Part shown: one piece after another, positions 36,419 through 55,895 of the stretch
How the letters are laid out: each line of letters opens with the position of its first letter
Numbering within the stretch: position 1 is the first letter of the stretch
Virus record (IMG/VR): IMGVR_UViG_3300024346_000039
Span: 11,587-75,586 of that record
DNA: 64,000 bases
From: a virus
Strand: one strand, 5' to 3'
Translations under genes and position numbers: made by a program
The notes under the pieces: model-generated
What the model was told of the DNA's origin: nothing
What the model saw: the letters and a program-made list of their open reading frames with translations, nothing else
Databases searched by the model: none

Positions 36419-36940
36419 ATGTGGAAGCCAGCAAATAGCCTTGAATGGCAAAGAGAAGCAGTATGTGCACTACCTAAAAATAGGGAGTATATTGACTGGT
36501 TTTTTTCAAAGGACTTCTCAGAAAAATATGCGGCAAAGAATATGTGTTTTACCTGCCCTGTCCGCAAACAATGTCTTCAGTGGGCTTTAGAGCACCGTCA
36601 AATCTGGGGCGTATGGGGCGGAAAAGACGAAGTAGAAATTCGTAGAGCGCTATCTGTATCTTACTTAGGTGAAGAAACACGCAGACGTCGCTACCCAAAC
36701 TGCCCTCATTGCACCGCACGTCCAGGCAAACTAGAAGTGTCTATTGAACAACTTTCCACAACTGGGCGTTGGACTACAGCAAAGATTGTAACTTGCACGG
36801 AGTGTGGCTTTGCTTGGCGTAGCCGAACAAGCGCGAATGCGGTAGAGGCTTATAAGTTAGAGCGTGAAGATAAACTTGCTAAGCAACTAAAAGAAAAAGA
36901 AAAACTACAAAAGAAAAGCAAGCGAGTTAAGAAATCTTAA
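36419..36940 (+). CDS. whiB: WhiB family protein fused to a C-terminal zinc ribbon and basic tail
   Basis: W...A.C...CFTCPV...C, WGVWGG, then CPHC...CTEC and a Lys-rich end. ATG 36419 lies 6 nt after TATTAT (likely leaderless). Confidence 0.85.
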   Translation: MWKPANSLEWQREAVCALPKNREYIDWFFSKDFSEKYAAKNMCFTCPVRKQCLQWALEHRQIWGVWGGKDEVEIRRALSVSYLGEETRRRRYPNCPHCTARPGKLEVSIEQLSTTGRWTTAKIVTCTECGFAWRSRTSANAVEAYKLEREDKLAKQLKEKEKLQKKSKRVKKS

Positions 36941-37511
36941 CTAACCAAACTTGTAGTCCTATCTCCAATACCTTAAAACGATTAGAGTAACAAAGCATTA
37001 TCGCATCAACTGCTGGTCTTGGTCGGTATGCTGGACCTTTTCCTGCATCCCACTGGTAATCATCAAATGCCAAAATACCACCTACTTTAAGAGCCTCTAC
37101 AGCATTCATACCATCTTTTAATACGGGAACTGCTTCATGGTCTCCATCTATATAAATAAAGTCATATAAAGTTTCTGGGTCTTTTGATGCAAAAAACTCG
37201 TCGCTAGTCATTTTCTTTTTGATAAGACGGCCTGCTTCGACATACTGGTTTGTTTGTGCGTCATAGGCTTGCTCTACTTCATTCCAATTAAGAGCATCGT
37301 GAGCAACTTCATTAGAGCCTCCCCAGGTGTCTACATCAGTTAACGTAGATTTTGGATGAAACAGTATGTTTTCCATAAGCCATGAAGAAGCATCACCTTT
37401 ATACGCCCCTACCTGTAAACAATGCATTTCTTCTGTTCTTTTTGATGACAAGTGTCGCTCAAAGATTTCAGGTGCACCTACTGCTAAAAACCAATTAGGT
37501 AGTTCAGTCAT
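36927..37511 (-). CDS. Class I SAM-dependent methyltransferase (Methyltransf_24-like, probable sugar O-methyltransferase)
   Basis: LQVGAYKG.S, VDTW, YDFIYIDGDH and LKVGGILAFDDY motifs. Confidence 0.85.
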   Translation of the reverse strand: MTELPNWFLAVGAPEIFERHLSSKRTEEMHCLQVGAYKGDASSWLMENILFHPKSTLTDVDTWGGSNEVAHDALNWNEVEQAYDAQTNQYVEAGRLIKKKMTSDEFFASKDPETLYDFIYIDGDHEAVPVLKDGMNAVEALKVGGILAFDDYQWDAGKGPAYRPRPAVDAIMLCYSNRFKVLEIGLQVWLVKIS

Positions 37512-38592
37512 TGTTTGCCTCTTTCATCGCTTGTTCGCAAAACTCTAAGTTTTTAAGAAGTCTTTCCATCTCGTTTGGAAGTGCCATTTTCACAGCGTCC
37601 TGTGCGTGAGTTACTGCTTCAGCATACTTGCCTAGTCTGTAGCAAGCAATTGCAGCAAAGTCGTGTGGTAAATAGCCCCAAGCGTCTGCTTCGCAAAGAT
37701 ACTCTTGTGGGCGTTGTTTAATTGCCAATGCGGCCATAGCGTTGTCGTAGCACTGCTCCCATTTAGAGGTGTTGTAATAGTGCTTAGCCAACTCTACATA
37801 CGGCTCACGGCGTCCTGGAGCCTCTTTAATCGCCATATTAAACCAATGCTCGCACTCATCTGGGTTCATAATTCCGATATATCGCATAGATGCGGCTCGT
37901 TCCATATCCCAGGTAGCGGTAGGCATCTCAAGGTGCTTCTTAAAATATTTTGTTGCTTCCTCATATTGACGATAGAAGTAGCATTCTCGTGCATAGTAAA
38001 AAGTATTTCTATCATCATATGGGTCTTCATCAATAGAAAGTTTTAGTAAATCCAAATACTGGGCTCTTGACTTAGTATTATCAGCGTGATGTTCCATCAC
38101 AGCGTTTGTGTGATATTGAATTTCTTGAATGCGGTCAGGCACTAAAATTTCGTGGACAGGGTTCTTCCAACGATATCCGTGTCGAGCATGAAATTTATCT
38201 CCCTTAAAAGTTGTCCCGGGAGTGCCATCTTCATTAAAGTTCCATACATAGTCGTACCGTGGACGTGTGGCATGGTTATCAAAGGCTTTTTGTAGTTCGT
38301 CTTTCCACCCTGGGAGCATAATTTCATCCATATCCAATGGAAGACAGTAGTCAATATCTGTCGGGACAAGAGCAAGCGATGCATTCCTTCCCACATCAAA
38401 ACGCCAAGGTCTAACAGTAATAGATACCACATTGATACCTAAAGACTTTGCAATCTCGATTGTGCGGTCAGTAGAGCCTGTGTCGGCAATTAATAGATAA
38501 TCAGCGTCATCTTTTACTGAGTTATACCAGCGTTCGACGTGCTTCTCTTCATTAAGGGCAATTGTGTATACAGCAACTTTTACTTTAGCCAT
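37504..38592 (-). CDS. GT2 glycosyltransferase with C-terminal TPR repeats
   Basis: VYTIALNEE, DTGSTD.T, WRFD.GRN.SL, LDMDE (DxD), W..PVHE, then a TPR-like helical region. Confidence 0.88.
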   Translation of the reverse strand: MAKVKVAVYTIALNEEKHVERWYNSVKDDADYLLIADTGSTDRTIEIAKSLGINVVSITVRPWRFDVGRNASLALVPTDIDYCLPLDMDEIMLPGWKDELQKAFDNHATRPRYDYVWNFNEDGTPGTTFKGDKFHARHGYRWKNPVHEILVPDRIQEIQYHTNAVMEHHADNTKSRAQYLDLLKLSIDEDPYDDRNTFYYARECYFYRQYEEATKYFKKHLEMPTATWDMERAASMRYIGIMNPDECEHWFNMAIKEAPGRREPYVELAKHYYNTSKWEQCYDNAMAALAIKQRPQEYLCEADAWGYLPHDFAAIACYRLGKYAEAVTHAQDAVKMALPNEMERLLKNLEFCEQAMKEANND

Positions 38593-38607
38593 ATGGGTAG
38601 TCTACCC
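38593..38607 (-). promoter_or_regulatory. Leaderless -10 promoter embedded in a 13-bp palindrome
   Basis: Minus strand reads GGGG-TAGACT-ACCCAT-ATG. GGGTAG-N-CTACCC palindrome at 38595-38607. No SD. Confidence 0.55.
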
Positions 38608-38608
38608 C

Positions 38609-38647
38609 AAACAAAGCAAAAACCCCGCACCAAGAGGCACGGGGTTT
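38609..38647 (-). terminator. Rho-independent terminator of the fibre operon
   Basis: Minus strand AAACCCCGTGCC-TCTT-GGTGCGGGGTTT followed by TTGCTTTGTTT. Confidence 0.8.
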
Positions 38648-38661: not shown

Positions 38662-39048
38662 TTATGCAACGTTTGCAAAACGAACGCGACCATAGATTGA
38701 AGTCCCGCCGTCACGACTATAAAACTCTAGTACAGACTTTCCAGTTGTTGCAAGGGTAGGTGTTCCTCCACCATCCCAAGAAACGTTTGCAAAGTTGACT
38801 GTGTTTGACCCACGGTTAGCAACTTCAACCCACCATGTGTTGGCATAGTTATCAGGCACATTAGAAAATGTGATTGTTGATGTTGCAGTCTGGTTTCTTA
38901 GAACAGTCACAGGGAAGTCAATAACGCTCACAGTAATTGCGCCGTTAGCAGCAGCACCAGTAAATGTTTGTAGACGTGCTGTAACGCCTTGTGTGATGTA
39001 AGCATCAGTTGATGCGGTTAGCACCTGGGGTGACATTGTAATTGGCAT
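38662..39048 (-). CDS. Putative virion structural / fibre-tip beta protein
   Basis: TITFSN.P...W..G.TPTL...GKSVLEFYS.DGG..IYG motif of phage fibre C-terminal domains. Confidence 0.6.
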   Translation of the reverse strand: MPITMSPQVLTASTDAYITQGVTARLQTFTGAAANGAITVSVIDFPVTVLRNQTATSTITFSNVPDNYANTWWVEVANRGSNTVNFANVSWDGGGTPTLATTGKSVLEFYSRDGGTSIYGRVRFANVA

Positions 39049-39051
39049 TAT

Positions 39052-39348
39052 TTATTCCTCCGCAGGGGTTTCATCAGAAGACTTCTTCTTTGAAGAGGTC
39101 TTTGCAGCAGGTGCTGCTTCTTCTGCTGCTGCTGCAACTAGTTCTTCCCATACTGGGAGACCCTTTGGCAGTTCAGGAGCAAATGTTTTGGTCTTCATGT
39201 TGTAAATCCAACCAACTGAAGGAGGCAATACAGAGTCAGTAATGTCTATAGCCGCATACATTATTGCCTCTGGCCCAATTACATCTTCGCTTTCAGCAGC
39301 GACAATGTTTTGAACCTTGCCGCCGCCTACTAGAGCAAATTTTTTCAT
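39052..39348 (-). CDS. Small partner (fibre chaperone-like) of the glycine-rich protein
   Basis: FAL....V.NIV...SVGW.Y...F.P pattern. AGGAG RBS. Confidence 0.55.
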   Translation of the reverse strand: MKKFALVGGGKVQNIVAAESEDVIGPEAIMYAAIDITDSVLPPSVGWIYNMKTKTFAPELPKGLPVWEELVAAAAEEAAPAAKTSSKKKSSDETPAEE

Positions 39349-39365: not shown

Positions 39366-42300
39366 TTACGCTGTGAACTTCTCAGTGTAACGAATAATAA
39401 CAGTGCCATCAGCACCATTTCCACCGTTAGCAACGTATGGATAATACTGAACTGTGTTGAAGTCAATATCGCAAACGTCACCAGCAGACATATTTAACAG
39501 TTCAACTGCAACTTGGAAGTATGCACAATTTGCTGGAGCAAGTGGTGGCTGCCATGTTGAGATTGTTCCTGCGACTGTATCAGAATATGTTGCTGCAACA
39601 AGTGCTGCGTTAACTGATGGACGGTCTTCACGAATAAGAACCTTGTTGATGTCATACCACTGAATAGTAGGACGAGCAACCTTTGTTCCCAAGTTTGGTG
39701 TTCCTGGGTTTGAACCAGTAGCCAAACGGAATGAGAAGCCTGAGAAGAACAACTGTGTGCGAGGCAAGATTGGGAAATCTGTCCAAGATGTAACTACCTT
39801 AGCATTTCCAGCATCCTGAATTGTTGTACGAAGTGCGTTAGTACCGTACTTAGTAGAACCAGCAAGAAGTGCTGTTGTAGCGTTGTATACAGGAGCCCAG
39901 CGAGCCATATCTGTATTTGGAGCAGTTCCTGCTTCAAATTGAATGAATGTTGATGCTGAGTGTGTAGCAAGTGCCAAAGGTGAGTTAGCACCATTTGAAC
40001 CACCACCGCCACCACCAGAACCTGTATTAGGAGCAGCATCAAGTCCGCGAGAGTAAACGTCTGTAACAAGACCGCCACCCTGACCAGTTAAGTATGCGAT
40101 GTAAGTGTGTCCACCCTTACCGCCACCTGCTTGACCGCGACCTGGGTTATTGTTTGAACCCTGTGCAAAAGCACTCCATCCGCCTCCGCCGCCTCCGCCG
40201 CCGAGTTGTGTAACACCAAGTGTTCCAGTTCCGTTAACAAGAACTCCTGGACCACCATCTCCACCATAAGCAGGGGTAGCAACGTTAGATGCAAGAATTG
40301 CGTATCCGCCTTGGTTACCTTGCTGCTGAACATTCTGAAGCATTGTTGAGCCAGTTGTTGCGTAACCAGCAGTAGTGACACCACCAGTAATCTGAGGGGC
40401 AAAACTCATAGCGTTTCCACCAGGACCACCAGAACCAGCACCGCCACCACCATATGTAGGTGTGTTAGTTGCATTTGTGATTCCGTGTCCACCTGCGTTA
40501 GCGCCTGGAAGACCAAACTGCCAGAAGCGAAGGTTAACGTTGTATGTTCCGCCTCCGCCGCCGCCCTTGGCTAGAAGGAGAGGTGCAGTAATTGTTGCAG
40601 AGTAGTGTGCTTCTCCAGCCCATGTAAAGCCAGAAGAGTTTCCATCTTTGTAGAATGTAACTGAAGCGCCCTGCTCAAGTTGAGCAAATGCTAGGTAGAA
40701 CTCAGGCTCTTGACCACCTGTTGAGTTGTTAGCAGCATTAGCAAAAGTTGCTCCTAAGCGAACATAAAATGCGTTTGCAGGTGCTGTTGCGCTTACTGTA
40801 TAGCGACGACCAGGTGTTGCCTGAAGGTTGCTTGTACCGCTCATTTTAGTGCCAGTTGTGCCTAGAAGAGCAGCAGTTCCTTGTGTGCGTGAGATGGCAT
40901 TGCCATCTACATCGAAGAACTCAAGGTAAGCGCTAGCGTTTCTATACTCTTTCCATGCCCATGCATAGAATGAGCCTGTGTAAACCTGTGCTGGTGTTGC
41001 TTTGATGAAGTCATGTGAAACTTCCATGTTTGCACCAGTTGCAACAGTAGAAATCATCTTAAGAGCCACGCCTGAGTTGTAGGTAGGTGGTCGGTATGCA
41101 GTTGCAGAAGAGCCAACTTCAACCTGAACGTTATCAAACAACATAGTTACGTTAGCAGGAACAAGAAGTCCTACATAAGCCCACTTAGCAGTTAGACCTG
41201 CCGCGTATGCTGGAAGACCAGTAAATGTTGCAGAAACACGGCGCCATGCACCAGAAACAATACCTGTGTGAGCAAATGTTCCAGTTCCGCTTACTGCTGC
41301 TGCGTTGTTAGCAGAAAGAGTAATTGTTGTGCCAGCAATATTTACAACAGTCGCTGCTGCACCAACACCAGTACCAGACACATTCTGTCCGATAAAGATA
41401 CCGTCAGCGCTATCAACAGTAATAAAGTTGTTGCCCTGAAGACCAGAAATTGTCTTAGAAATTGCTCCACCATAACCAGAGAGTGGAGATGTAATTGTAA
41501 CCTGAGTTACGTTATATCCACCAGATGCTGGAGAACCTGAAGAGTAAACAGTTCCTGTACCAGATGAAGTTCCCTGGTTGTTTGTTGGGAAGTTAGTACC
41601 ATCACCAATACGCAACTGAACAACAAGGTTCTGTGGTGTAGGGCTTGTGTGGTAGACGTACATAGAAACTGTGTAGGTTGCGTTAGGGTCATAAGCAAAG
41701 CCAGTTGTTCCGCCAGATAGAGCACCTGCGGCTGAAGTTGAAAGACCTACTAGACGAGCACCAGTTGTTGAGTTAGTACAGATAAGTGCGTTAGCACCTG
41801 AAGATGTACCAATCGCTGCTGGTGAAACCATTTCAGCAAGTTTTGGATAAGGGTTTGAAGATACCTGAGCAGTAATAGAGCCCTGGTTATCAAGTACGAA
41901 GAATGAAGAGCCAGTGAGAGCAACGTCTTCTAACTGAGCATACTGAGCCTGAATTACGTTGTTTGACTGGTTTGTTCCCAAAGATGCGGAAAGCGAAATA
42001 TTATCGTTATAGATAATGCTTGTTGGGGTAATTGTGCAAGACTGTAGAAGGAATGTAATTGTTCCTGAAACAGTACCTGAGTTAGCAACAGATAAAGTAA
42101 TTGTGTTGCTTGCAATTGTAGTAACAACCGCGTTAGCACCAATACCAGTACCTGTTGCTGTCATACCAACATAAATACCAACGTTATCTGGACGAATATC
42201 AATAGTGAAAAGACCACCAGTACCTGTTGCAGTCTTCTGTGCCTGTTGAATATTGTTTGCTTCCCAGAGAGAAGTTCCCTTGTTAAAAGAAGGGTTCATC

Positions 42301-42680
42301 AAAAGGTTTACAGGAGTTGAGCCACCAAATGTTGTGGTTCCGCCTACGCCTCCTGGCATTGTGTTGATGTTGTCAGTAGCACCAGTTGTTGCACCCTGGC
42401 CACCATGTCCACCTGCACCAATTGAAACGTTGTATGTAGTGCCAGCAGTAACAGGAACTTGACGCTGGACAACCTGTCCACCGCCGCCACCGCCACCAGC
42501 AACGACGTCAGCGCCACCTCCGCCACCGCCGCCGCCACCAACAGCAACAACTTCTACTGCTGTGATGCCAGTTGGTACGGTAAATGTGCCGTTCGAGTTG
42601 AACTGGACTTCACGAATCGAGAAGCGTCCAGAGTTGTCATTAGGAAATACAATTAAATCTTTGCTACCTGAAATAGCCAT
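39366..42680 (-). CDS. Large glycine-rich virion protein with carbohydrate-binding-like modules
   Basis: FTVPTG.TAVEV.AVGGGGGGG at the N-terminus and GGNG.DG.VIIRY at the C-terminus. Internal NLL.NPSF, DNVQVE.GS.AT.Y and AQLEQG motifs. Confidence 0.7.
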   Translation of the reverse strand: MAISGSKDLIVFPNDNSGRFSIREVQFNSNGTFTVPTGITAVEVVAVGGGGGGGGGADVVAGGGGGGGQVVQRQVPVTAGTTYNVSIGAGGHGGQGATTGATDNINTMPGGVGGTTTFGGSTPVNLLMNPSFNKGTSLWEANNIQQAQKTATGTGGLFTIDIRPDNVGIYVGMTATGTGIGANAVVTTIASNTITLSVANSGTVSGTITFLLQSCTITPTSIIYNDNISLSASLGTNQSNNVIQAQYAQLEDVALTGSSFFVLDNQGSITAQVSSNPYPKLAEMVSPAAIGTSSGANALICTNSTTGARLVGLSTSAAGALSGGTTGFAYDPNATYTVSMYVYHTSPTPQNLVVQLRIGDGTNFPTNNQGTSSGTGTVYSSGSPASGGYNVTQVTITSPLSGYGGAISKTISGLQGNNFITVDSADGIFIGQNVSGTGVGAAATVVNIAGTTITLSANNAAAVSGTGTFAHTGIVSGAWRRVSATFTGLPAYAAGLTAKWAYVGLLVPANVTMLFDNVQVEVGSSATAYRPPTYNSGVALKMISTVATGANMEVSHDFIKATPAQVYTGSFYAWAWKEYRNASAYLEFFDVDGNAISRTQGTAALLGTTGTKMSGTSNLQATPGRRYTVSATAPANAFYVRLGATFANAANNSTGGQEPEFYLAFAQLEQGASVTFYKDGNSSGFTWAGEAHYSATITAPLLLAKGGGGGGTYNVNLRFWQFGLPGANAGGHGITNATNTPTYGGGGAGSGGPGGNAMSFAPQITGGVTTAGYATTGSTMLQNVQQQGNQGGYAILASNVATPAYGGDGGPGVLVNGTGTLGVTQLGGGGGGGGWSAFAQGSNNNPGRGQAGGGKGGHTYIAYLTGQGGGLVTDVYSRGLDAAPNTGSGGGGGGSNGANSPLALATHSASTFIQFEAGTAPNTDMARWAPVYNATTALLAGSTKYGTNALRTTIQDAGNAKVVTSWTDFPILPRTQLFFSGFSFRLATGSNPGTPNLGTKVARPTIQWYDINKVLIREDRPSVNAALVAATYSDTVAGTISTWQPPLAPANCAYFQVAVELLNMSAGDVCDIDFNTVQYYPYVANGGNGADGTVIIRYTEKFTA

Positions 42681-42708: not shown

Positions 42709-43044
42709 TTACGCGGTGACTTCTACGCCTGAAATAAGTACATCAAGCGCATTATTGGATGAAGCACCAACATATACGACATCGTTTGGGTTCATAACCT
42801 GACGAATATCAAAGTTTACAGTTCCGTTGGCTGGAACTTGTAGACCATTGCAAAAATTAAATGCTGTTGCTGAGTTAAAGCCGCCAGTTCCAAACTGTAC
42901 GGTGATTGTAGAAACAGATGATGTCTTGTTTGCTACAACGATGTTTGTGATGATGGTGTTTCCACCTGCTGGCACTTGGTTATAAGCGGTGACGCCAGAA
43001 GTAGTTGCTACACCTGCGAAAAGTTTCTTTGCTGTAGTTGGCAT
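42709..43044 (-). CDS. Small beta-sandwich putative structural protein
   Basis: VPA...TII.NI.VAN...VPAN.T...D....ISGVE pattern; operon coupling. Confidence 0.6.
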   Translation of the reverse strand: MPTTAKKLFAGVATTSGVTAYNQVPAGGNTIITNIVVANKTSSVSTITVQFGTGGFNSATAFNFCNGLQVPANGTVNFDIRQVMNPNDVVYVGASSNNALDVLISGVEVTA

Positions 43045-43382
43045 TATGCTAACACTCCCATGTATGAGTTGATGGTTAAATCATTTGCTGTTGCAGTGAT
43101 TGTTGCGAGTTTTGTGTTTCCTGCTGAGTTCACTGCCGCAACTTGCGTAGTACCAGCCGTGTTGACTGCGTTTACCTGAGTAGTGCCAGCGTTATTCACG
43201 AGGGCAACAGAGGCTGAAGTAGCAGCAACAATATCATTCACTCCTAGGAGTGAGCCTAGAGTCTCTAATGCCTTAGAGATGAACACTAGGTCCTGAGCAG
43301 TATATGTACTAGCAGCGAGGCTAGTGGTAATTTCTGCCTTAACCGCATCAATTTGGGTAGACAGGCTGTCATAACTAGGCAT
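43044..43382 (-). CDS. Hypothetical helical protein with NxAGTTQV repeats
   Basis: GGAG RBS; 11-aa repeats. Confidence 0.65.
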   Translation of the reverse strand: MPSYDSLSTQIDAVKAEITTSLAASTYTAQDLVFISKALETLGSLLGVNDIVAATSASVALVNNAGTTQVNAVNTAGTTQVAAVNSAGNTKLATITATANDLTINSYMGVLA

Positions 43383-43449: not shown

Positions 43450-46400
43450 TTATGCCTGGGCCTCAGTCCATGAGACACGAGCAGAAATGGTGGCCTGGGC
43501 TGCTCCAATATTTGTTGCAGTGATGACTAGAACGTCAGGAGCGTTAGGATAACTTGGGCTAGCAATGTTTCCATTACCACTCAAAATTGAGTTTCCAAGT
43601 TCACGAATTGTTCTCAATTCGTAGTTTGTAATGTTAAATGCGGTACCACCAGCGGCTTCTGTATAGAAGGAGAACACTTCGTCTCCACCTTGAACTGAGC
43701 CAGTAGCAGCAACCTGAACACCACCGATAGGGCCTGTATTATCAAAATAAAGCGCCTGAGCCAGTGAACCAGAACCTACGCGCTCGCGCTCCCAGTCAAA
43801 AGGAAGACCTAGATATGGTCTTACACCAGTGAAGTTGATTACTTGTCCATTAGCAATACCGCCAGCGGCAACAGGTTGAGACAACTGAATTGTTGTTCCA
43901 AAGATACCTGTAATAACGGCACCTGCTACAACCGATGCTGAGGAGCCCGCTGCTCTTACAGACATACCGATTGAAAGGTTCTGAACGCTGCTCATATTAA
44001 CGAATGACTGGAACTGAGTATTTGCGTTTGCATATGGGGCTGCTGCTGCAATTACTGTATACCCAGTTACATCGAAAGAAGAAGAAGCATGGTTGTTATA
44101 CGAGATATTTGTTGGATTTAGGACTCCACGAATGAGGAACTGACCATTAGCAGAAATACCCATTGACACAAGTTTCATCTGCATACGGTTTACAAGTTCA
44201 CGAGCACCAAAGTTCTTTGCTACAGCGTTATCTACTGAAGGAGCCAGACGAACAGCAACAAGAGGACGGTTTACACCGTTAGGCACTGTAAGGTTTTTCT
44301 GCATACCAGCAGTAAAGGTGTAGTTAGAGTCATCATCAAAACGACCATCCATAATTACAGATGAACCCCAGTGGGAAATCATAGGGGCACAGGTCTGAGT
44401 AACTGTTTGAACAACTACCTGACTTGCACCATTTCCACCAAGAGTTTCATCTGGATTAAATGATAGTTCTGTAGAAGCACTACCTGCTGCCAAAACAGTA
44501 ATTGCTCCTGGGAAGAATACAGTGTAGGTTTGACGACGTGCAACAGTTAAAGGATATCCTTTTGCTGTTGGATTCCAAGGACCGATAGCGCTATAAGAAA
44601 TCATTTCGCAAGCGCTACTGCTTTTAATAAATGCGTACCCGCTAGTAGGCCATGCTTCTACGTTATCAACAAAGACTGTAGTGTCGTTTGGCTGCAAAGT
44701 TGAACCAACAGTTCCTGCTGCTCCTGAAGTTAAACGAGCACTCTTTGGCTCGTTATGTACTTCGTAACGAGCAGGTAGGTTACCTGAGCGCTGATATGCA
44801 GCATTGTTAATGTTGTTGTTAGCCATACGATGGCAATAGACCACGTCACCGCGGATTGTCCTAAATCCCCAGCGGATGAATCCTGCGCCATACCATGTGT
44901 AGTCAATGTAGACCATCTGCATTTTCTTAGGGTCTAGAACATATCCTGAAGGACCTGTTCCATCCATCTTGTCAAAGTTCCATGCATCTTGACGAACACG
45001 AATCTCTTGAGTCTTTAAAATGCGGCCATTTGTAATACTTGCACCACGATATGTAGGATTTATATACATTTCTGTATCACTAAAAATGTTATTTACAATG
45101 TAAGTTTGGCCACGAATAACTACTTTATCTCCAACAGTAAGTTGTTTTCTAAATAACGTTCCTACACCAATAATTTGTCCAGAGAATGTGTTTGCACTAA
45201 TACGGCCAGCCAACTCGGTATTTGAAAAACGACGAACAACATACATATATTGACCATCATATTCAACATAAAAACCGTTCTGGTCATCAAACATACCTGT
45301 ACGAGCAACAGCGCCCTTCCATCCAGAAACTGTTACTGCACGGTTTGTTCCTCCTGGAGCAGTATCTGTCAAAGTAAGTGCTGCTGGAAGAGTTATCTGG
45401 TATGTAAATGTGTTGGTATCGCCAATACTTGCAACAATAAAACTTCCATTAAATGGATTGTTTAGTGCTACGGTTTCAACGCCTTCAATAAGAACAGTAG
45501 CACCTGGCTGTAAGCCGTGGTCTTGTAGAGTAACTACAGTAACGTTCTTTGTTCCAGCAGAGAGAACATCGCTTGCAACCAAACTTACAATATCAAAAGA
45601 TGGAGTAAATTTTGCACCAGTCGAAAATTGAATTGACTTACCTGACTGGTAGCGGAAGTAACGACGAGTTTGACGAATAGTTTGAGCACCTACAGCATTA
45701 TTAAGTGTTGTTAGAGAAACTCCACCATCTGTTGGTCGGTGCTGAACATAGCCTTCTGGTTTTGTATAAATCACAGAAGATGATGAGGTAGATACAGAAG
45801 TAACTACAGTGTCAGAAATATCAAAGGTAAGAACTCTAGGTGTAGGAACAGTCTTTACAATCCAGTTACCATTCATACCACTTGTGTTATTGATAACAAT
45901 AGGTGTCCCTGGGAAGAGACCATGAGGCTGATTAAAGGAAAGTGTAATTACTGAAGGATTTCCGCCACTTGTTGTAGCAGCAAAACCATTAAGAGTAGAT
46001 GTGCTTGCAATACCGCCAGGGATATGTGCGTTATCAAAAGTATCTCCACCATATACGGTTGAGTAGTTGGCAATAGCAATTGAGCCAGAAACCAATCCAC
46101 GGGCAAAGTATGTAAATGTTGTTGGAGTTGGAGTTGTGTTTACAAGGAAGGTTCCTTCAGCACGGAAGTTAGTTGTATCCTGAACGCTTACGATGCTTCC
46201 TGGAACTAAGTTGTGAAAAACAGTAGTTGTTACAGTAATAAGAGAACGTGGTCCCTGACCGTTTCCAAGAATATCTACGTTCTCAAAGGAGTTACCACCT
46301 GTGCCCTTTGCAAAGAATGAAGGGTAGTTGTTCATCAAGAAAAGTGCTTCCCATTTAGATGGCTGAACAGAGTATTCAAAGTCTGTATCCATCAAAGACT

Positions 46401-47305: not shown

Positions 47306-47381
47306 TGATTGCTCCTACACTCGTCCACAAGTAGCATCTATATATTATCCTATTTTCTCTTTTACTAGTTTCACATTAGCC

Positions 47382-49070
47382 TTAAAATACCCTGACCCAC
47401 GGGACAAGGTTGGCATATGTGGAAAGTAAAGTTGGTGCTGTTAAAGAGTCTCCTCTAGGGATTGTCCCTGAAATTGTGTTGCCTGGAACTCCTAGTCCGA
47501 TAGTGTTTGCAAACTGAGGCTTTCCTAAGTCCATACCAGCCAAAAGCAACGTAGATGCCGAGGTATCTGTAGAGAAAACAACAGCATATGCCTGACCAGG
47601 AACTAAAGTATAAGATGATGGATACCCGCCAAAAATACTAAATGAGCGGGTATACCAAGCACCTGTCTCGGTCATCAAACTTGTATCACTATTAGTTCGT
47701 GCAACAAGAGCCATCGAGCCAGTTTGTAGATTTATAGTGTAAAGAAGGTATCTAGCGTATGTTGCATCAGGTAAGTCCAAAAAGCCAGAGCCATTAAAAC
47801 AAAACATAGAAATACTATTAATTGTCAGTGCTTTTGGAGATATAAGAATTGCTGCTGGATTTGAACCAAAATCAGGTCTTATATTGATAGCACAGTTAGT
47901 CCCAAGATGCGCTCTTGAAATATTTTCAAGATGACTTCCAAGAATAAAATCAACTTCATTGGTTGCTCCAGGCACACCTTGTGGTCCTGTAGGTCCAGGA
48001 ACAAAACTTTGTCCTGCTGGCCCCTGAGCACCTGTAGGCCCTGTAGGCCCTGTAGGCCCCTGCGGACCTTCTAAAATTTCATCTTGACCACTAGTATCAA
48101 CCCAAAGAACTGTTACATCTTCATCTGGTGCTGTAGGTTGAATAGCAAGATAATCTAAATCAATATCATCTTCATCAATCCACAAATCACCTTCAAAGCG
48201 TGTGCCTGTTGGTGGGTTTGGGTCAGAATAAATAAGTTCTTCAATTACATTTTCTTCAGATGCCCAAAATTGAAACTCTGTTGGGTCTGGTGCTGTTGTT
48301 CCAGAATAAATTGCAGCATTAGCACCAAGGTCATCAATATCAAACCAAATGTCTCCAGATGTTGGGCCTGTAGGTGAACCTAAACCAATATATGTTTCTG
48401 TAGGAATACCAGTTCCATCAGTTGAAACATAGTCTTTACCTTTTGGACCAATATTTCCAGTAGGACCCGTTGGACCAGTTGGACCCGTTGGACCGACAAT
48501 TTGACCAACGCTGCTCCACGCAGTTCCGTTCCATACATACATATCACCGTCTGAGTCAACAACAAATGCATCGTTTCGAGCATTACCTGTTGAGGGAAGA
48601 TTTTGTGGTGTCGCAACACTTCCTCGAACATTGATAGATGTTCCTTGAGGACCAGTACTACCTGTTGGTCCTGTTGGACCTGGAACTGTAGATGTTGGGC
48701 CTGTAGCACCAGTCGCACCTGTAGGACCAAGAATATTTCCAGTATTAAGCCACTGCCCACCTACAGTGTCCCAAACATATAAATCACCTTGAACAAGATA
48801 CGCCTCACCAATGCTTCCAACAGGGTCGGCAGCAATCAGTTGGTTGAGCGTGGCATACGAGCCAAGAAGTGTTAGACCAGCGCCCTGAGCACCTGTTGCA
48901 CCCGTTGGTCCAATAATTCCTTGTGGGCCAACAGCACCTGTAGGACCAGTAGGACCAATTGGAGCAATCTTTACTACTTGCCAAACACTGCCATTCCAAC
49001 GCCAAGTATTTGTTCCAGAACTAAATTCTTGATTTAGGGAAGGCGAATTAGGAAAATCAATCGCTGCCAT
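47382..49070 (-). CDS. Collagen-like fibre protein (562 aa)
   Basis: GPT/GAT triplets interrupted by globular modules; MAAIDFP.SP...WRWNG..W N-terminus. Confidence 0.8.
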   Translation of the reverse strand: MAAIDFPNSPSLNQEFSSGTNTWRWNGSVWQVVKIAPIGPTGPTGAVGPQGIIGPTGATGAQGAGLTLLGSYATLNQLIAADPVGSIGEAYLVQGDLYVWDTVGGQWLNTGNILGPTGATGATGPTSTVPGPTGPTGSTGPQGTSINVRGSVATPQNLPSTGNARNDAFVVDSDGDMYVWNGTAWSSVGQIVGPTGPTGPTGPTGNIGPKGKDYVSTDGTGIPTETYIGLGSPTGPTSGDIWFDIDDLGANAAIYSGTTAPDPTEFQFWASEENVIEELIYSDPNPPTGTRFEGDLWIDEDDIDLDYLAIQPTAPDEDVTVLWVDTSGQDEILEGPQGPTGPTGPTGAQGPAGQSFVPGPTGPQGVPGATNEVDFILGSHLENISRAHLGTNCAINIRPDFGSNPAAILISPKALTINSISMFCFNGSGFLDLPDATYARYLLYTINLQTGSMALVARTNSDTSLMTETGAWYTRSFSIFGGYPSSYTLVPGQAYAVVFSTDTSASTLLLAGMDLGKPQFANTIGLGVPGNTISGTIPRGDSLTAPTLLSTYANLVPWVRVF

Positions 49071-49109
49071 TTACACTCTCCTCAAGAATAGATATTTCTA
49101 ATTGTACGG

Positions 49110-49265
49110 TTAGGAATCAAGACCAAGATTTAATCGGTTTACATATGCGGATGCCCAGTTGATGGCTGAAGCCTCTGACTCCCATGGGCCAGAACTATCA
49201 ACAACTACATCATCTGACTTAACTTCACAGATAAGTTCTCTTGTTATTGTATAAGTATACGCCAT
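49110..49265 (-). CDS. Small hypothetical protein (51 aa; not in the ORF track)
   Basis: AGGAGAG RBS. MAYTYTITRELICEVKSDDVVVDSSGPWESEASAINWASAYVNRLNLGLDS. Confidence 0.7.
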   Translation of the reverse strand: MAYTYTITRELICEVKSDDVVVDSSGPWESEASAINWASAYVNRLNLGLDS

Positions 49266-49274
49266 TTTACTCTC

Positions 49275-50186
49275 CTAGTTAGTAATGAGCGATGTGCCCA
49301 GAAGCCCTAATTGACCTGCTGCAATAAACTTTGGTATTCCTGTTGGAAAGCCATAAGCAATACTATTTATGTTAGAGCCTGAAAAACTAGAATCTCCTGC
49401 TGTCCAACTTATAGCATCTGTTGAATAAATTGCTGTTCCATTCGCACCACCAATAAAAAATGTTGCTGACCCGAAATCTATGTCTCTAAGAGTGAGGGGA
49501 CCTGCTGGCTGCGTGCGTTGGGTCCAAATACTTCCATCTAACGATGTTGCAATTTTTCCATCTCCACCGCAAGCAACATAATAACCAAGCCCATATGAAA
49601 TAGAGTAAATAATGCTTGTAGTAAAACTACTTGTCCGTTGAGTCCAAGAAATTCCATCCGAAGAAGTTGCTAATTTTCCAGCAGCCCCGACTGCAACATA
49701 CAAAGACCCTGAATATGTAACACCATAAATAATTGACGTGCCAAAACTACTTGTTCTTTGAGTCCAGGAAATTCCATCTACTGAGGTTGCTAATTTTCCA
49801 GAGGCTCCTACAGCAACAAAAAGAGAGCCAGAATAAATTACATTAAGAATAATTGTTGTACCAAAACTACTTGTCCGTTGAGTCCAATTAATTCCATCTG
49901 GAGAAGTTGCTAGTTTTCCAGACGCACCGACTGCCACATAAACTCCAGCACCATATGCAACATCCCAGATGGTAGTTGTACCAAAACTACTTGTCCGTTG
50001 AGTCCAAAAAATTGCTTCGGGAGATGTTGCTAATTTTCCTGAGTTTCCAACGGCAATAAATTGACCATTTAAAAATTTTACTGATGATATTTCAGTAGTG
50101 CCAAAACTACTTGTTTGAAGAGTAAATGCTGATGGAGCATTAAGTCGAACACGAGATGACCAAATTCCATGAAGGGCTTTAAGCAT
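49275..50186 (-). CDS. BNR/Ycf48-like beta-propeller repeat protein
   Basis: About seven 40-aa repeats WTQRTSSFGT..I..V.Y....VAVG..GKLATS.DG. Confidence 0.8.
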   Translation of the reverse strand: MLKALHGIWSSRVRLNAPSAFTLQTSSFGTTEISSVKFLNGQFIAVGNSGKLATSPEAIFWTQRTSSFGTTTIWDVAYGAGVYVAVGASGKLATSPDGINWTQRTSSFGTTIILNVIYSGSLFVAVGASGKLATSVDGISWTQRTSSFGTSIIYGVTYSGSLYVAVGAAGKLATSSDGISWTQRTSSFTTSIIYSISYGLGYYVACGGDGKIATSLDGSIWTQRTQPAGPLTLRDIDFGSATFFIGGANGTAIYSTDAISWTAGDSSFSGSNINSIAYGFPTGIPKFIAAGQLGLLGTSLITN

Positions 50187-50189
50187 TAG

Positions 50190-52118
50190 TTAGCCCACCA
50201 AACTTCCAGCAAGTAACCATTCATTAGCAGCAATTTTTAGAAGAGAGCCTGTAGCGTAAGTCTGAGAAAGTTTTCTCTTTCCACCTTCAGAGTTGAGAAT
50301 AACTCCAGCACCAGGAGCAATAGTTGTTTGTCCAGAGTTGTATTGGATAAGAACAATCTGTGTCCCCACAGGGAAGGTGTATCCGCTTTGACCATCTGGA
50401 GGAATTGTCACTGTATGAGCATTAGCAACATTCATTCGAACTAATCTAAATGCATCTGCTGGAGCAAGAGTAATTGGAGTTGTGTATACGTTTCCAGTAA
50501 GTTCATAGAATGGAGTTCCTGTTGGACCAGTTGCCCCGATTCCAGTCGGACCTGTTGCGCCAGCAGGACCTGTAGGACCAGCAACAGTTGATGCAGGACC
50601 AGCAGGTCCCGTTGGTCCTTGCGGTCCAGCAGGGCCAGTGGGTCCGACAGCAGTAGATGCTGCGCCAGTTGCACCAGTAGGACCAGCAGGTCCTGTTACA
50701 GAAGGCCCTGTGGCACCAGTAGCACCAGTTGCACCAGTCGGCCCAGTTGGGCCTGGAACAGTTGAGTCTGCACCCTGCGGTCCAGCAGGTCCAGTAATTG
50801 ATAATCCAGTTGCACCAGTAGGTCCAATTGGACCTGACACACCTTGCGGACCTACAACTGGTCCAGCGTTCTGCCAGTCAGATACAGCAGCATTCCAAAT
50901 CCATAAGTTAGTTCCGACAATGTATCCATCGCCAACAAGGTTTGTTTGACCAGCACGAGCAGCAGCCAAAGCAGGATAACTTGGGTAGAAACCTAAAATC
51001 TTAATACCAATACCAGTTGGGCCTGTAACGCCAATCGGTCCAGTAATGCCCTGTGCACCAGTTGGACCAGTAATTCCTTGTGGCCCAGTTGGACCTTGAA
51101 TACCTGTTGGACCAATATTACCTGTTGCTCCTTGGAAGCCACGAATACCAGTTGGACCAGTAATACCCTGAATACCTTGCGGTCCAGTAATTGATAAACC
51201 AGTTGCTCCTGTTGCACCAGTTGGTCCAGTAATACCCTGAATACCTTGTGCACCAGTAGGTCCTTGAATGACACCTACGTTTGCCCAGACTTCAGATGCG
51301 TTCCACACATATAAAGTTCCTTGAACTAAATAACCTTGTCCAGGCATTGTTGGTCCAAATGGAAGTGCAGCAAGTAATTCTGGAAAAGTATTAAAACTTC
51401 CAGCAATAGTAAGACCAACACCTTGGTCTCCAGTTGGGCCTTGTGTGCCAGTTGGTCCTGTTACTCCTTGTGGCCCCGTAGGTCCTAGTGGACCAGTTAC
51501 ACCTTGAGGCCCTCTAATACTTCCTAAGTTTTCCCAAGAAAAAGATGTTGTTGACCACGAATAAACTTGCCCGTCAACTAAATATGAATGAGTTGGAATT
51601 GTTGGGCCAGTAGGTAGTGCAGCAATGAGAGCAGCAGGGTTTGGATACGTTCCAGCAATTTTTGCTTCATATCCGCGAGGACCAGTCCAACCAGTAGGAC
51701 CAGTTAATCCAATAATTCCTTGAGGTCCAGTAAAACCAGTAGGTCCTGTAGGACCTGTAACTCCTTGTGGTCCAGTTGGCCCAGTTACACCACCAATACT
51801 TGATGCAGATTCAACCCAATAGTTATCATAATAAACATATAACTGCCCAGTTGCAGAATCAAACCAAGCGTCACCAGATGCAGCATTAGATGGTGGTGTT
51901 GAAGATTCTAAAGCAAACTTTCCATAGCGACCAGTCGCACCTGTTGGGCCAGTGACGTTTGATGCAGCACCAGTAGGTCCTACTGCACCAGTTGGACCCG
52001 TTGGTCCAGTAAGTGGACTAACAACAATATTCCATGTTGTTCCATCCCACTTCCATTCTTGCAAACCAAATTGATAAATGTCATTTACTTGAGGGTTTGA
52101 TGGAAAATTAATAGCCAT
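50190..52118 (-). CDS. Collagen-like fibre protein (642 aa)
   Basis: GPT-rich triplets, MAINFP.NP...WKWDG..W N-terminus, C-terminal TVTIP.....FPVGTQI...Q...GQ.TI..GAGV domain. Confidence 0.85.
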
Positions 52119-52121
52119 TTA

Positions 52122-55100
52122 TTACACTGCCCTCTCATACATAAACTCAACAATAATTTCATCATTAGGATTAAATGTAAATGGGTCAGTGTGGCTTGCA
52201 GGTAATCCTTCTGCATAAACTGCCACCTGAGTATGAATGAACAATTCAACTCTTGTTCTATCATCATTGTTAATAGCAACTGTTCCAAAGAAGTTTTTAC
52301 CAGTGCTAATACTTCTCATTGTGACAGTTCCTATTGGTTCAACGTTTCTCATACCGTTCACTGCTGTGAATGGAAGTGTAATTCTATATGTTCCATTTCC
52401 ACGGTTGGTGGTTGAGCCAGCAACAATAAATAGATTTCCTTTAATCAATCTACCCATTTCGACATATTTACCAAAGATAGTTCCATTGCCTAGAGTTGGG
52501 TTAATACTTGTTGCCGTCCACACGGGGGTATATGTGTTCCAACTACCATAATCAAATGCACCAGTCGCACCTGTTGCACCAACCTGCCCTGTTGGTCCAG
52601 TAATTCCTTGTTCACCTTGCGGACCAGTAATTCCTTGCGGACCTGTAGGGCCTTGGAAACGACCAGTGTTGTCCCAGTTAAGATTAATAGCGTCCCATAC
52701 ATAGAGGTCACCACCAACAATATACGCTTCTCCAGCAAAACCTGTAGGACGTTCTTCAATAAAGACTCCGTAAACTCCATAAGAACCAGAAATAAAGAGA
52801 CCCTGACCAGTATCACCCTTAACGCCAGTAGCGCCAGTAGGTCCAATCAAGCCTTGCTGACCAGTCGGTCCAGTAATTCCTTGAATACCTTGAATGCCTT
52901 GTGGACCAGTCGCACCTACTGCACCAGTCGGTCCAGTAATTCCTTGAATACCTTGAATGCCTTGTGGACCAGTAATTGAAAGACCTGTGGCACCCGTAGG
53001 CCCTGTAATACCTTGAATACCTTGTGGACCAGTAATACCTTGAATGCCTTGTGGCCCAGTTGGACCAGTAATTCCTTGTGGTCCAGTTAATCCACGAATA
53101 CCAGTAGGTCCTTGAATACCTTGAATGCCTTGTGGCCCAGTTGGACCAGTAATTCCTTGTGCACCTGTTGGACCAGTAATACCTTGAATACCTTGAATAC
53201 CTTGCGGTCCTGTAGCACCTACCGCACCTGTAGGTCCAGTAATACCTTGAATACCTGTAGCACCAGTCGCACCTGTTGCACCAACCTGCCCTGTTGGTCC
53301 AGTAATACCTTGAATACCTGTAGCACCAGTCGCACCTGTTGCACCAACCTGCCCTGTTGGTCCAGTAATACCTTGAATACCTGTAGCACCAGTTGCACCT
53401 GTAGCACCTACTGGACCTGTAGGTCCAATTGGAGCAGCACCAACTTCTACCCAGTATGAGTCGTAATAAACATAAATTTTTCCATTGGTAGCGTTAAACC
53501 ATGAATCACCATTTTGTGGATTTGCTGGAGGTGTTGTTGCTTCAAGAGCAAAACTTCCATAGCGACCTGTAGGTCCTGTAGCACCTGTTGGGCCAACAAT
53601 TTGTCCAGCATCAACCCAAGAGTCACCATCCCATATATAAATATTTCCGTCAGCATCAACAATGTATGCATCGTTAATATTATTTCCAGATGATGGAAGA
53701 AGTGATGAGGTAGCAACACTTCCCTTAAGAACAATTGATGCTCCTGATTCACCAGTTGCACCTGTAGCACCAGTAGCACCTGTTAAACCAGTTAAACCAG
53801 TTGCACCAGTAGCACCAGTTGCACCAGTTAAACCAGTTGCACCAGTAGCACCTGTAGCACCAGTAGCACCCATAACACCAGTTGCACCTGTTGGACCAGA
53901 AACGTTACCTACGTTTGTCCAAGAATCTCCGTCCCATACATAAAGATTTCCTTGAACTAAATATGAATCACCTTCTGTTGAAGGGCCTGTTGGTAGTGCT
54001 GCAATTAGTTCTGCTGATGTTTGATAAGACCCTGCAATTGCAAGACCTTGCCCCTGAGCACCAGTAGGTCCAGTTGGACCTGGAACAGTTGAGGTAGCGC
54101 CAGTTGCACCAGTAGCACCAGTTGCACCGACTGCACCAGTAGGTCCTTGAATACCAGTAGCACCAGTTGCACCCGTTGGTCCAACTTCACCTTGAATACC
54201 AGTAGGGCCTTGAATACCTTGTGCACCAGTAGCACCAGTTGCACCAGTAGCACCTGTAGGGCCTTGAATACCTTGTGAACCAGTTGCACCAGTGGGACCA
54301 ACAGAGCCTGTAGGTCCTGGAACAGTTGAGTCTGCACCAGTAGCACCTGTAGGTCCTTGAATACCAGTAGCACCAGTAGCACCAGTTGCACCAGTTAAAC
54401 CAGTTGGTCCAACTTCACCTTGAATACCTGTAGGTCCTTGAATACCAGTTGCACCAGTAGGTCCAACTTCACCTTGAATACCTTGAAGACCTGTAGGTCC
54501 TTGAACACCAGTTGCACCCGTTGCGCCAGTCGCACCCTGAACACCTGTAGGTCCTTGAATACCAGTTGCACCAGTAGGTCCAACTTCACCTTGAATACCC
54601 TGCGAACCAGTCGCACCTGTTGGTCCCTGAACACCACTTGCACCAGTAGCACCAGTTGGTCCTGCAACTGTGCTTGCTGCACCAGTTGCTCCAGTTGGTC
54701 CAGTTTCACCGATATCGCCTTTTGCACCTGTAGCACCAGTTGCACCAGTTGCGCCTTGAATACCAGTTGCACCAGTAGGTCCAACATTGCCTTGAATACC
54801 TTGTGCACCTGTTGCACCTTGTGCACCAGTTGGTCCAACTTCACCTTGAATACCTTGAATACCAGTTGCACCTGTAGGGCCTTGAATACCTTGTGCACCA
54901 GTAGCACCAGTTGCACCAGTTGCACCTGTAGCACCAGTTAAACCTGTAGCACCTGTAGGGCCAACTGCACCTGTCGGGCCTTGAATATTTCCAACGCTAT
55001 CCCATTCGGAATTTACTGCGTCCCAGACATAAAGATTTCCTGCAACGATATAACTATCGCCAGGATTTCCTGTTGGTTGTGCTGTTTGTAATGCAACTAA

Positions 55101-55895
55101 TGTTGCATAAGAACCAAGAATTGTTACAGACGTACCAGCAGCACCAGTTGCACCTGTTGGTCCAAGTAAACCAGTTGGCCCTGTTACACCTTGAATACCT
55201 TGAATACCTTGAATACCTTGTGCACCTGTTGCACCAGTTGGCCCTGTTACACCTTGAATACCTTGAATACCTTGTGCACCTGTTGCACCAGTATTTCCTT
55301 GAATACCTTGTGCACCTGTTGGACCAACAGCACCTTGTGGACCTGTAATACCTTGAAGACCTTGTTGTCCTGTTGCTCCCGTAGCACCAGTGGCACCGAC
55401 AAGACCTCTTTGTCCTGTAGGACCAGTTGGTCCACCCGCTGGGCCTGGCATACCTGTCGGACCAGTCGCACCTGTTAAACCTGTAGGACCTGTGGCACCC
55501 TGTGGACCCACTGAACCACGAGGAACAGACACCGCAGCCTGAGATGCAACTGCTCCACTTACTGGGTCAACATTTGTAATATCTACATCGCTACCATCAT
55601 TATCTGGTAAGTAGAAGTCAAAGTTGTATGCTTTTGCTCCGTAAACACGGACGCGAACTGTGTAATACCAACCGACAGGCGACAGCGCTCTGTTATCAGT
55701 TGTAGGTAAATCAATACTGAATGCACCAGTATTATCTAATTCAAGTTGTATAGGCCCTGATAAAATTACTGCATCATTAGTATCTGTAATCTTTCCAGAG
55801 GCAGAGAAAGTGACAGTTCCAGAAGCGGGAAGACCATTTACCTTAGTAAATTGACCCTTGACCGTTCTAGTTGTCACATCTTCTGAATAACTCAT
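52122..55895 (-). CDS. Long collagen-like fibre protein (1257 aa) with N-terminal anchor and C-terminal receptor-binding-like head
   Basis: Hundreds of GPT/GAT/GIQ triplets. N-terminal G.PASG.VTF...LD..G.FS..LP..D domain. C-terminal W.TYTP.W.....LGNGT..G.Y...G head. Confidence 0.88.
53233..53400. repeat. 63-bp near-perfect tandem repeat inside the collagen gene
   Basis: ggtccagtaataccttgaatacctgtagcacc... recurs at 53233, 53296 and 53359. Confidence 0.8.

Follow-up and report, generated by a model that had tools for sequence, protein, structure and literature searches.

A collagen-like fibre module with a putative protein O-glycosyltransferase and methyltransferase in a freshwater actinophage

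The collagen-like protein BclA of Bacillus anthracis carries on its GPT repeats a glycan that is a rhamnose oligosaccharide with O-methylated sugars. The composition of this glycan was described by Daubenspeck (2004), as cited in PMC11923368. In Clostridioides difficile, the glycosyltransferase SgtA, a protein of 358 amino acids (aa) with a GT-A domain and four TPR repeats (the TPR part at 262-358), is encoded beside bclA3 and adds beta-O-linked N-acetylglucosamine (GlcNAc) to threonine residues of collagen-repeat peptides of BclA3 (PMC7157674). Here we describe a 64,000-nucleotide stretch of the IMG/VR virus record IMGVR_UViG_3300024346_000039 (hereafter the window, the final 64 kb of a 75.6-kb record with a CheckV completeness of 49%), in which four collagen-like genes share one block with genes for a glycosyltransferase (GT) and a methyltransferase (MT). 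The block probably encodes accessory tail fibres for host adhesion, in a freshwater actinophage that carries WhiB and has a siphovirus-type tail, and we propose that the GT of the block O-glycosylates threonine residues of the fibres and that the MT O-methylates the sugar.

Triplets containing threonine are anomalously frequent in viral (and bacterial) collagens, and whether and when they are glycosylated has been posed as an open question, while (Gly-Pro-Thr)10 folds into a triple helix only with galactosylated threonine (PMC11923368). Glycosylation of prokaryotic collagens has been treated as limited to a few spore-forming bacteria, with Mimivirus as the viral case (PMC8968730). Among phages, virion glycosylation in mycobacteriophages was located on the C-termini of capsid and tail-tube subunits (Freeman et al., 2023, as cited in PMC12619734). 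In phages of 'Ca. Nanopelagicales', GTs were read as agents of DNA protection or superinfection exclusion, and collagen-like genes were placed in a hypervariable host-recognition island (PMC10202952). Our search of the literature found no report linking phage collagen-like fibres to a dedicated glycosyltransferase.

The collagen-like genes and the glycosyltransferase

Thirteen co-oriented genes, separated by intergenic gaps of -8 to 204 bp, run from 55895 to 36927 on the minus strand of the window. The collagen-like genes and the two enzyme genes are located as follows:

52122 to 55895, minus strand: collagen-like fibre protein, 1257 aa (Pfam Collagen PF01391, 2.4e-103; 246 G-X-Y triplets in 11 runs)
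50190 to 52118, minus strand: collagen-like fibre protein, 642 aa (89 G-X-Y triplets, four knob inserts)
47382 to 49070, minus strand: collagen-like fibre protein, 562 aa (36 G-X-Y triplets, a pair of knobs, C-terminal domain of 192 aa)
46769 to 47305, minus strand: short collagen-like protein, 178 aa (21 triplets; PF01391, 6e-8; matches to many tail-fibre PHROGs)
37504 to 38592, minus strand: predicted GT2 (GT-A) plus TPR glycosyltransferase, 362 aa (PF00535, 1.7e-9; TPR_14, TPR_2, TPR_12)
36927 to 37511, minus strand: predicted Methyltransf_24 O-methyltransferase, 194 aa (PF13578, 46.1 bits, cut-off 26.3)

An initial annotation of this DNA had described a 19-kb co-oriented block with four collagen-like genes dominated by GPT and GAT triplets with threonine in the Y position, large Thr/Ser/Gly-rich proteins and a GT gene overlapping an MT gene, and every one of these elements was recovered in place. 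The four collagen-like genes, the only ones in the 75.6-kb record, match PF01391 with E-values between 6e-8 and 2e-103 and together hold 392 G-X-Y triplets, 175 of which (45%) are GPT (92) or GAT (83); threonine occupies the Y position in 214 of the 392 (55%). Collagen periodicity of this length cannot be due to chance. The large proteins of the same block have 1098 aa (10% Gly, 11% Thr, 9% Ser) and 1104 aa (16% Gly, 12% Thr, 8% Ser).

The GT belongs to phrog_13126 (1e-113), and its D87-x-D89-E90 stretch, which holds the DxD metal and nucleotide-sugar motif, is invariant among 24 homologues, as are other GT-A residues. A sequence search of the PDB returned SunS (5e-6), GmaR (4e-4) and then ThuS, at identities of 13-16%. 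An AF2 (AlphaFold 2) model of the GT, with a predicted local distance difference test (pLDDT) score of 93.8, has helical repeats at residues 176-361, and Foldseek matched this model over its whole length, TPR part included, to SunS (1.3e-17) and ThuS (4.6e-17). The next best match stood at 5e-8 and wall-glycan GT-A enzymes at about 1e-7, ten orders of magnitude worse; the comparison with SunS-like enzymes suggested in the initial annotation yielded a full-length match of the fold at the 1e-17 level. The nearest relatives of the GT by sequence and modelled fold are the peptide glycosyltransferases SunS and ThuS, joined by GmaR in the sequence comparison; we propose that the GT is a protein O-glycosyltransferase acting on threonine residues of the fibres. 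Membership of the SunS equivalog family (TIGR04195) was rejected, the score being 29 bits against a cut-off of 350, and neither a glycocin precursor peptide nor an exporter was found beside the gene, whose neighbours are fibre genes, the MT gene and whiB. The reading as a DNA glycosyltransferase was not kept either, given the SunS-like fold with TPR and the linkage to collagen genes described below. At E <= 1e-30, the GT family comprises 1603 cluster representatives across viruses and Bacillota.

Linkage to collagen genes and coupling to the methyltransferase

The viral comparison covered 80 contigs with GT homologues (41-100% identity), 73 of which have at least 1 kb of upstream flank, and its internal controls were the near versus far collagen density within loci and the MT loci with versus without a GT. 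Collagen open reading frames (ORFs) lie nearly exclusively upstream of the GT and on its strand, and a same-strand collagen ORF ends no more than 700 bp upstream of the GT in 36 of the 73 contigs. Their density is 0.181 per kb up to 1.5 kb from the GT versus 0.036 per kb beyond 3 kb, and threonine fills the Y position in 80% of the GT-proximal triplets. When the phage GTs are clustered at 70% identity, 10 of 22 clusters show collagen adjacency. A large clade of small phages keeps the order capsid (Phage_capsid_3), 96-aa gene, 112-aa gene, collagen, GT and SU10-type adaptor, with a collagen of 230-470 aa and about 85% Thr in Y that ends 7-19 bp before the GT. Collagens of 1012-1060 aa lie 221-258 bp upstream of the GT in another viral clade, and in the GC-rich phage L140 (loci are cited by their labels) an MT-GT pair is flanked on both sides by collagen genes.

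In 20 viral contigs (for example L070:9418-10002; L165 and L185 also show GT25), a GT25 gene (PF01755, 4.8e-15) separates the GT from the collagen gene, and none is present in the window. On a quick GT tree, used for clade structure only, presence and absence of GT25 are interleaved, a pattern suggesting that a second glycosylation step has been gained or lost repeatedly.

The linkage extends to bacteria. Among the best 80 bacterial homologues (39-53% identity, mostly from gut Bacillota), a collagen ORF lies no more than 1.5 kb from the GT homologue in 51 loci, and collagen ORF density is 0.259 per kb up to 1.5 kb versus 0.010 per kb beyond 3 kb, a 26-fold difference; all ten of the ten GT-adjacent ORFs tested matched Pfam Collagen. 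Two of these neighbouring collagens bear a BclA_C domain, clearly in L209 (82.8 bits) and under the 38-bit cut-off in L213 (34.1 bits). The GT homologues beside BclA_C collagens have 39-47% identity, and a further homologue occurs in Paraclostridium ghonii, a species of the same family as C. difficile. The L213 pair, from Eubacterium coprostanoligenes ATCC 51222, has ctsR-mcsAB-clpC on one side and a P-type ATPase gene on the other, a context that marks it as chromosomal and not as part of a prophage. Independent distribution of GT and collagen genes, which the initial annotation had named as the outcome that would speak against it, was not seen in either set, 36 viral and 51 bacterial loci being linked. 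Because the linkage is found in viral contigs as well as in bacterial genomes, the GT family as a whole is, judging by its gene neighbourhoods, a collagen-associated glycosyltransferase family.

Several loci show other arrangements. In the metagenome-assembled Actinomycetia phage DSL-LC01, of lake origin and the nearest named record to ours, a Trp-halogenase-family gene (PF04820, 5.5e-50) overlaps the GT start at the end of the collagen block (L001:18436-21080) and may encode another fibre-modifying enzyme. A complete 91-kb phage contig carries three tandem GT paralogues of 349, 313 and 345 aa followed by a Peptidase_S74 fibre gene (L022:10004-13031). A sister clade (L016:8770-11065) lacks the entire 19-kb fibre block and has in its place, between metallophosphoesterase gene and GT, a gene of 270 aa and one of cytidylyltransferase type (PF01467, 1.6e-21). 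The Pseudomonas and Erwinia jumbo phages have at least four collagen-like ORFs each, away from the fixed site of the GT homologue, which lies at 178630-179904 in PaBG (NC_022096.1; collagens at 197-203 kb) and at 114-115 kb in NC_061445.1 (collagens at 69-77 kb).

The last 8 bases of the window GT gene overlap the start of the MT gene, which suggests translational coupling. The AF2 model of the MT (pLDDT 93.1) is a Rossmann S-adenosylmethionine (SAM) methyltransferase with the fold of cation-dependent O-methyltransferases, and its best Foldseek match was MeT1 of Mycobacterium hassiacum (1e-9), followed by many CCoAOMT-type O-methyltransferases with template-modelling (TM) scores of 0.6-0.7. 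MeT1 is a sugar 1-O-methyltransferase of methylmannose polysaccharide synthesis. The methyl acceptor of the phage MT may be a sugar hydroxyl, to which this match, best by a narrow margin, and the fusions described below point indirectly. Among 80 viral loci found with an MT profile, 35 contain a GT, nearly always directly adjacent, and the order is GT then MT in the clade of the window and MT then GT, with 0-10 bp between them, in another clade. Collagen genes accompany 23 of the 35 MT loci with a GT versus 6 of the 45 without (Fisher p = 1.6e-6, for loci that are not independent). Moreover, the two activities occur in single polypeptides: P0128, P0130, P0132 and P0135 join GT2-TPR to Methyltransf_24 or RMNT_CmcI domains in either order. 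P0135 and P0132 are natural MT-GT2-TPR fusions, the MT part of P0135 aligning with the window MT along its full length at 41% identity (E = 6e-38), and in P0128 the GT is fused to an RMNT_CmcI rhamnosyl O-methyltransferase domain. Because of the adjacency in both orders, the co-occurrence with collagen and the natural fusions, GT and MT very likely work in one pathway. In two of the fusion proteins the TPR part also shows a weak match to the peptide-binding domain of collagen prolyl 4-hydroxylase (TPR_P4H, 24 bits, below the cut-off).

The fibre module and its transcription

The initial annotation had read the block as a coat of the exosporium type, a view that the domains of its proteins do not support. 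Pfam scans of the four collagen proteins found the Collagen family only and no BclA C-terminal (C1q-like) domain (PF18573), which the same library does detect in the bacterial neighbour genes of L209 and L213. The non-collagen domains belong to tail-fibre and minor-tail families: the N-terminal 126 aa of the 1257-aa protein match phrog_14726 tail fiber (3.6e-18), one of its knobs matches inside phrog_3904 tail fiber, and the C-terminal ~100 aa of the 642-aa protein are 35-44% identical to Gordonia phage minor tail proteins (tblastn) and also match phrog_8780 and phrog_18179. Because of the matches to phrog_14726, to phrog_8780 and the Gordonia minor tail proteins, and to phrog_3904, together with the absence of BclA_C, the domains point to a module of tail or accessory fibres and not to a BclA-like coat. 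For the small phages, the position of collagen and GT between capsid and adaptor genes is compatible with a location on the head.

The longest protein consists of a tail-fibre anchor domain (residues 1-126), a collagen region divided by five knob inserts of 41-49 aa, and a 143-aa C-terminal domain for which a PDB sequence search gave no match; among its 246 triplets, the Y residue is Thr in 140 and Gln in 64. A filament of about 200 nm had been deduced from it, and the arithmetic is correct (246 triplets x 3 x 0.286 nm = ~210 nm), but the helix is not continuous, since the five non-collagen inserts break it. The 192-aa C-terminal domain of the 562-aa protein matched no family and no PHROG. The 178-aa collagen-like gene is kept at the same place in the relatives L005 and L009-L013.

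Helix-interrupting knobs of 41-51 aa recur across the collagen proteins (46769-55895) in two or three types, exemplified by ...GSYATL..L.AA.P.G..GD.YLV.G.LYVWD....W.N.GNI.. and ..PP.N...GD.WF...TG..YVYYD.YWVE..., and the alternation of collagen runs with knobs gives the picture of a beads-on-a-string fibre. The 562-aa and 642-aa proteins also have a common N-terminal motif, FP..P....W.W.G..W.

The remaining features of the block, including two signals discussed below, are:

49275 to 50186, minus strand: 303-aa propeller-like repeat protein (about 7 repeats, SFGTT...GKLATS.DG..WTQRTS, visible in the translation; Pfam matches weak)
43450 to 46746, minus strand: virion structural protein, 1098 aa (phrog_5838, 1.7e-233)
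42709 to 43382, minus strand: a pair of small proteins rich in Thr and Ala (112 aa, then 111 aa in phrog_1276)
39366 to 42680, minus strand: glycine-rich fibre-type protein, 1104 aa (PF21722 Gly_rich_2, 9.6e-13; phrog_863, 7e-16)
38662 to 39348, minus strand: small proteins of 98 aa and 128 aa (phrog_9017 tail fiber matched weakly, 1e-5)
38620 to 38647, minus strand: intrinsic terminator (12-bp GC-rich stem and U tract; minimum free energy -31.8 kcal/mol, z = -3.2)
38599 to 38604, minus strand: TAGACT, a TANNNT -10-like hexamer at -12 to -7 of the GT start codon

The 303-aa repeat protein is 44% identical to the product of a DSL-LC01 gene labelled 'photosystem II assembly factor', itself flanked by collagen genes, and is probably a fibre-associated or receptor-binding component. 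The 1098-aa protein has 36-38% identity to the 'virion structural protein' of the T4-like cyanophages S-PM2 and S-RSM4 (also ACG-2014h), and is thus a fibre-module gene that crosses host phyla and tail types. Genes like that of the 111-aa protein also occur in small-phage fibre modules (L074/L075, L051), as does the Gly_rich_2 domain (L051). Within the clade of the window (L002-L013, L076, L081), the 98-aa and 128-aa genes always stand just before the GT.

Outside the block, the WhiB gene at 36401-36940 (PF02467, 1.7e-16) marks the phage as an actinophage. The plus strand of the window encodes a giant portal/protease protein, the major head and major tail proteins, head-tail connector proteins, a tape-measure-sized gene, Dit, a Tal-like protein of 999 aa and a 608-aa fibre with a Peptidase_S74 chaperone, and the main tail-tip genes (Dit, Tal-like, Peptidase_S74 fibre) thus lie outside the collagen block. 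The first of these products is an unusually large fused head protein, a single 1900-aa ORF (3600-9302, plus strand) matching portal (phrog_859) and head-maturation-protease PHROGs.

The strong terminator lies between the 128-aa gene and the GT, and its hairpin and U tract are kept, with differing stem sequences, in nine relatives (L004, L005, L009-L013, L076, L081). A TANNNT hexamer stands at the position of TAGACT in 12 further loci of the window clade, and in L013 too if the second ATG is the true start. A TANNNT hexamer at this spacing is the arrangement expected for a leaderless transcript from actinobacterial promoters. We therefore regard TAGACT as a candidate promoter of a leaderless GT-MT transcript, and the GT-MT pair may form a separate transcription unit, perhaps differing in timing or level; with a terminator and a promoter-like element before it, the pair is not simply the end of the fibre operon.

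Proposed mechanism, alternatives and comparison with described systems

In the mechanism we propose, the module would supply four trimeric collagen-like fibre proteins, with threonine in most Y positions and helices interrupted by globular knobs, along with non-collagen fibre proteins, and at its end a cytoplasmic GT-A plus TPR protein O-glycosyltransferase and a cation-dependent O-methyltransferase. The TPR domain of the GT would bind the fibre polypeptide, and its GT-A domain, through the DxD motif, would move a sugar from a host nucleotide sugar onto the threonine residues in the G-X-Thr repeats, the reaction described for SgtA with BclA3; the MT would then O-methylate that sugar. The glycan would probably stabilise a hydroxyproline-free triple helix and alter the fibre surface, whether for adhesion or shielding. 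Given the linkage of the enzyme pair to such collagen genes across about 200 related phage and bacterial loci, the fibres probably bear a sugar coat, as do the collagen hairs on spores of Bacillus and Clostridioides. The direct basis of this proposal is the gene content, the folds, the family-wide linkage and the enzyme fusions; from it we infer what the GT modifies and with which sugar, where the methyl group goes, that the fibres are part of the virion, and how the phage would benefit. Read from genes and models, a dedicated GT with a coupled MT acting on phage G-X-Thr collagen is supported by strong comparative evidence.

Several observations weigh against this proposal. In the window, 8.2 kb with six non-collagen genes lie between the GT and the nearest collagen gene, and the conserved terminator and the promoter-like element of its own separate the GT-MT pair from the fibre genes. 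Threonine in Y is common among prokaryotic collagens generally (PMC8968730). The loci are phylogenetically non-independent, so that the counts and the Fisher p overstate the evidence, and at 60% identity 3 of 10 phage clusters show collagen adjacency. The clade L014-L016/L023 has the order metallophosphoesterase, 270-aa gene, cytidylyltransferase-like gene, GT and whiB, without a collagen gene in its 54-76-kb partial contigs. In jumbo phage PaBG and Erwinia phage pEa_SNUABM_3, distant GT homologues (26-34% identity) sit between DNA ligase and prohead protease, 18-40 kb from the collagen genes. Besides, MeT1 is ahead of other O-methyltransferases by a narrow margin only. Such exceptions raise the possibility that some members of the GT family act on other fibre proteins or on other acceptors.

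Three other explanations were weighed. It is unlikely, in our view, that the targets of the GT-MT pair are further virion proteins of the module (the 128-aa, 1104-aa and 1098-aa Thr/Ser/Gly-rich proteins) instead of or besides the collagens. Throughout the window clade, it is the 98-aa and 128-aa genes and the gene of the Gly_rich_2 protein, never a collagen gene, that precede the GT, the three paralogues of L022 precede a Peptidase_S74 fibre, and L066 and L045 have non-collagen fibre genes between the collagen gene and the GT; mycobacteriophages, too, glycosylate virion proteins that are not collagens, namely capsid and tail-tube termini, according to the work cited in PMC12619734. However, the neighbour that recurs immediately beside the GT is a collagen gene, also in bacteria without phage fibre genes nearby, and the precedent of SgtA is specific to threonine of collagen repeats. 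The same adjacency, strand-specific and recurring over many phage and bacterial lineages, argues against a GT (with its MT) that serves host takeover or an auxiliary role on wall glycans, on teichoic-type polymers (superinfection exclusion) or on phage DNA, its proximity to fibre genes being incidental. That account also seems improbable to us in view of the full-length fold and sequence matches, which are TPR peptide and protein glycosyltransferases, the small-phage GT being placed among structural genes, after the capsid and before the adaptor gene, and no DNA-hypermodification genes having been seen beside the GT. On its side stand the PHROG category ('moron, auxiliary metabolic gene and host takeover', beta-1,4-glycosyltransferase), the interpretation of actinophage GTs as DNA protection or superinfection exclusion (PMC10202952), the GT-MT unit of its own behind a terminator and adjoining whiB, the coupling to a cytidylyltransferase-like gene without collagen nearby in L016, and the presence of the wall-teichoic-acid enzymes TarP, TarS and RmlT among the lower-ranking fold matches.

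That the collagen fibres are unmodified, and that the linkage reflects co-transfer within a hypervariable host-recognition island without any enzyme-substrate relation, is highly improbable. Collagen-like genes of Nanopelagicales phages do lie in such an island (PMC10202952) and many of the counted loci are close relatives, but the linkage is kept between GT clades only 40-50% identical, across very different genome sizes and types and on bacterial chromosomes, and adjacency is retained though gene order varies. More tentatively, the proposed glycosylation of fibre collagens may extend well beyond the window: a G-X-Thr collagen with an SgtA-like GT, and optionally GT25 or MT, could be a portable phage cassette of freshwater actinophages, small phages and GC-rich actinophages that has been exchanged with exosporium collagen systems of Bacillota, where threonine O-glycosylation would let hydroxyproline-free helices fold and give the fibres a glycan surface.

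The linkage gives the question of Thr-collagen glycosylation a concrete, testable enzyme-substrate pair, which in small phages is small (a 283-aa collagen and a 352-aa enzyme) and which is widespread. If the proposal is true, tail fibres would join the short list of glycosylated phage parts, with a fibre glycan surface so far undescribed for phages, and the host-recognition islands of abundant lake phages would be read differently. It would also open an easy way of making stable recombinant collagen-like materials that needs no prolyl hydroxylase.

With regard to described systems, the proposed pathway resembles Mimivirus L230 and the animal GT25 enzymes, as virus-encoded enzymes would here glycosylate the virus's own collagen-like fibres, and the GT25-family gene between collagen and GT in 20 related phage contigs recalls the animal collagen galactosyltransferases. 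Those enzymes, however, glycosylate hydroxylysine after lysyl hydroxylation, whereas threonine is the likely acceptor here, and neither a prolyl-hydroxylase-type 2-oxoglutarate (2OG) oxygenase (PF13640) in the phage record (49% complete) nor a GT25 gene in the window was found. As with the mycobacteriophages, the proposal is that a glycosyltransferase whose gene lies near structural genes of an actinophage decorates the virion; the targets reported there, as far as the cited account goes, are capsid and tail-tube C-termini, and collagen-like fibres are proposed here. BclA of B. anthracis matches the phage system in its GPT-rich collagen and in the methyltransferase of the system, and differs in the BclA_C domain, which Pfam scans did not find in the phage collagens. 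SunS and ThuS (PDB 7msn, 7msk), which are glycocin S-glycosyltransferases, and Listeria GmaR, the flagellin O-GlcNAc transferase, have in common with the phage GT a GT-A domain with DxD and a helical, TPR-type substrate-binding part, although the phage acceptor would likely be the hydroxyl of threonine on a fibre protein and not, as for SunS and ThuS, cysteine on a small peptide.

For the comparison with SgtA and BclA3, the published description of SgtA was used. The phage GT and SgtA have 362 and 358 aa, an N-terminal GT-A domain and a C-terminal TPR part, the phage GT is likewise predicted to be cytoplasmic, its candidate substrate is a Thr-rich G-X-Y collagen, and genes of its family neighbour collagen genes, some of which, in Bacillota, have BclA_C. 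On the other hand, the setting of the phage genes is a fibre module and that of SgtA a spore coat, the phage collagens have tail-fibre domains and knobs but no BclA C-terminal domain, the window GT is six genes and a terminator away from them, and the phage enzyme has a partner O-methyltransferase, sometimes fused to it. Overall, the system is best filed as a phage form of the BclA/SgtA kind.

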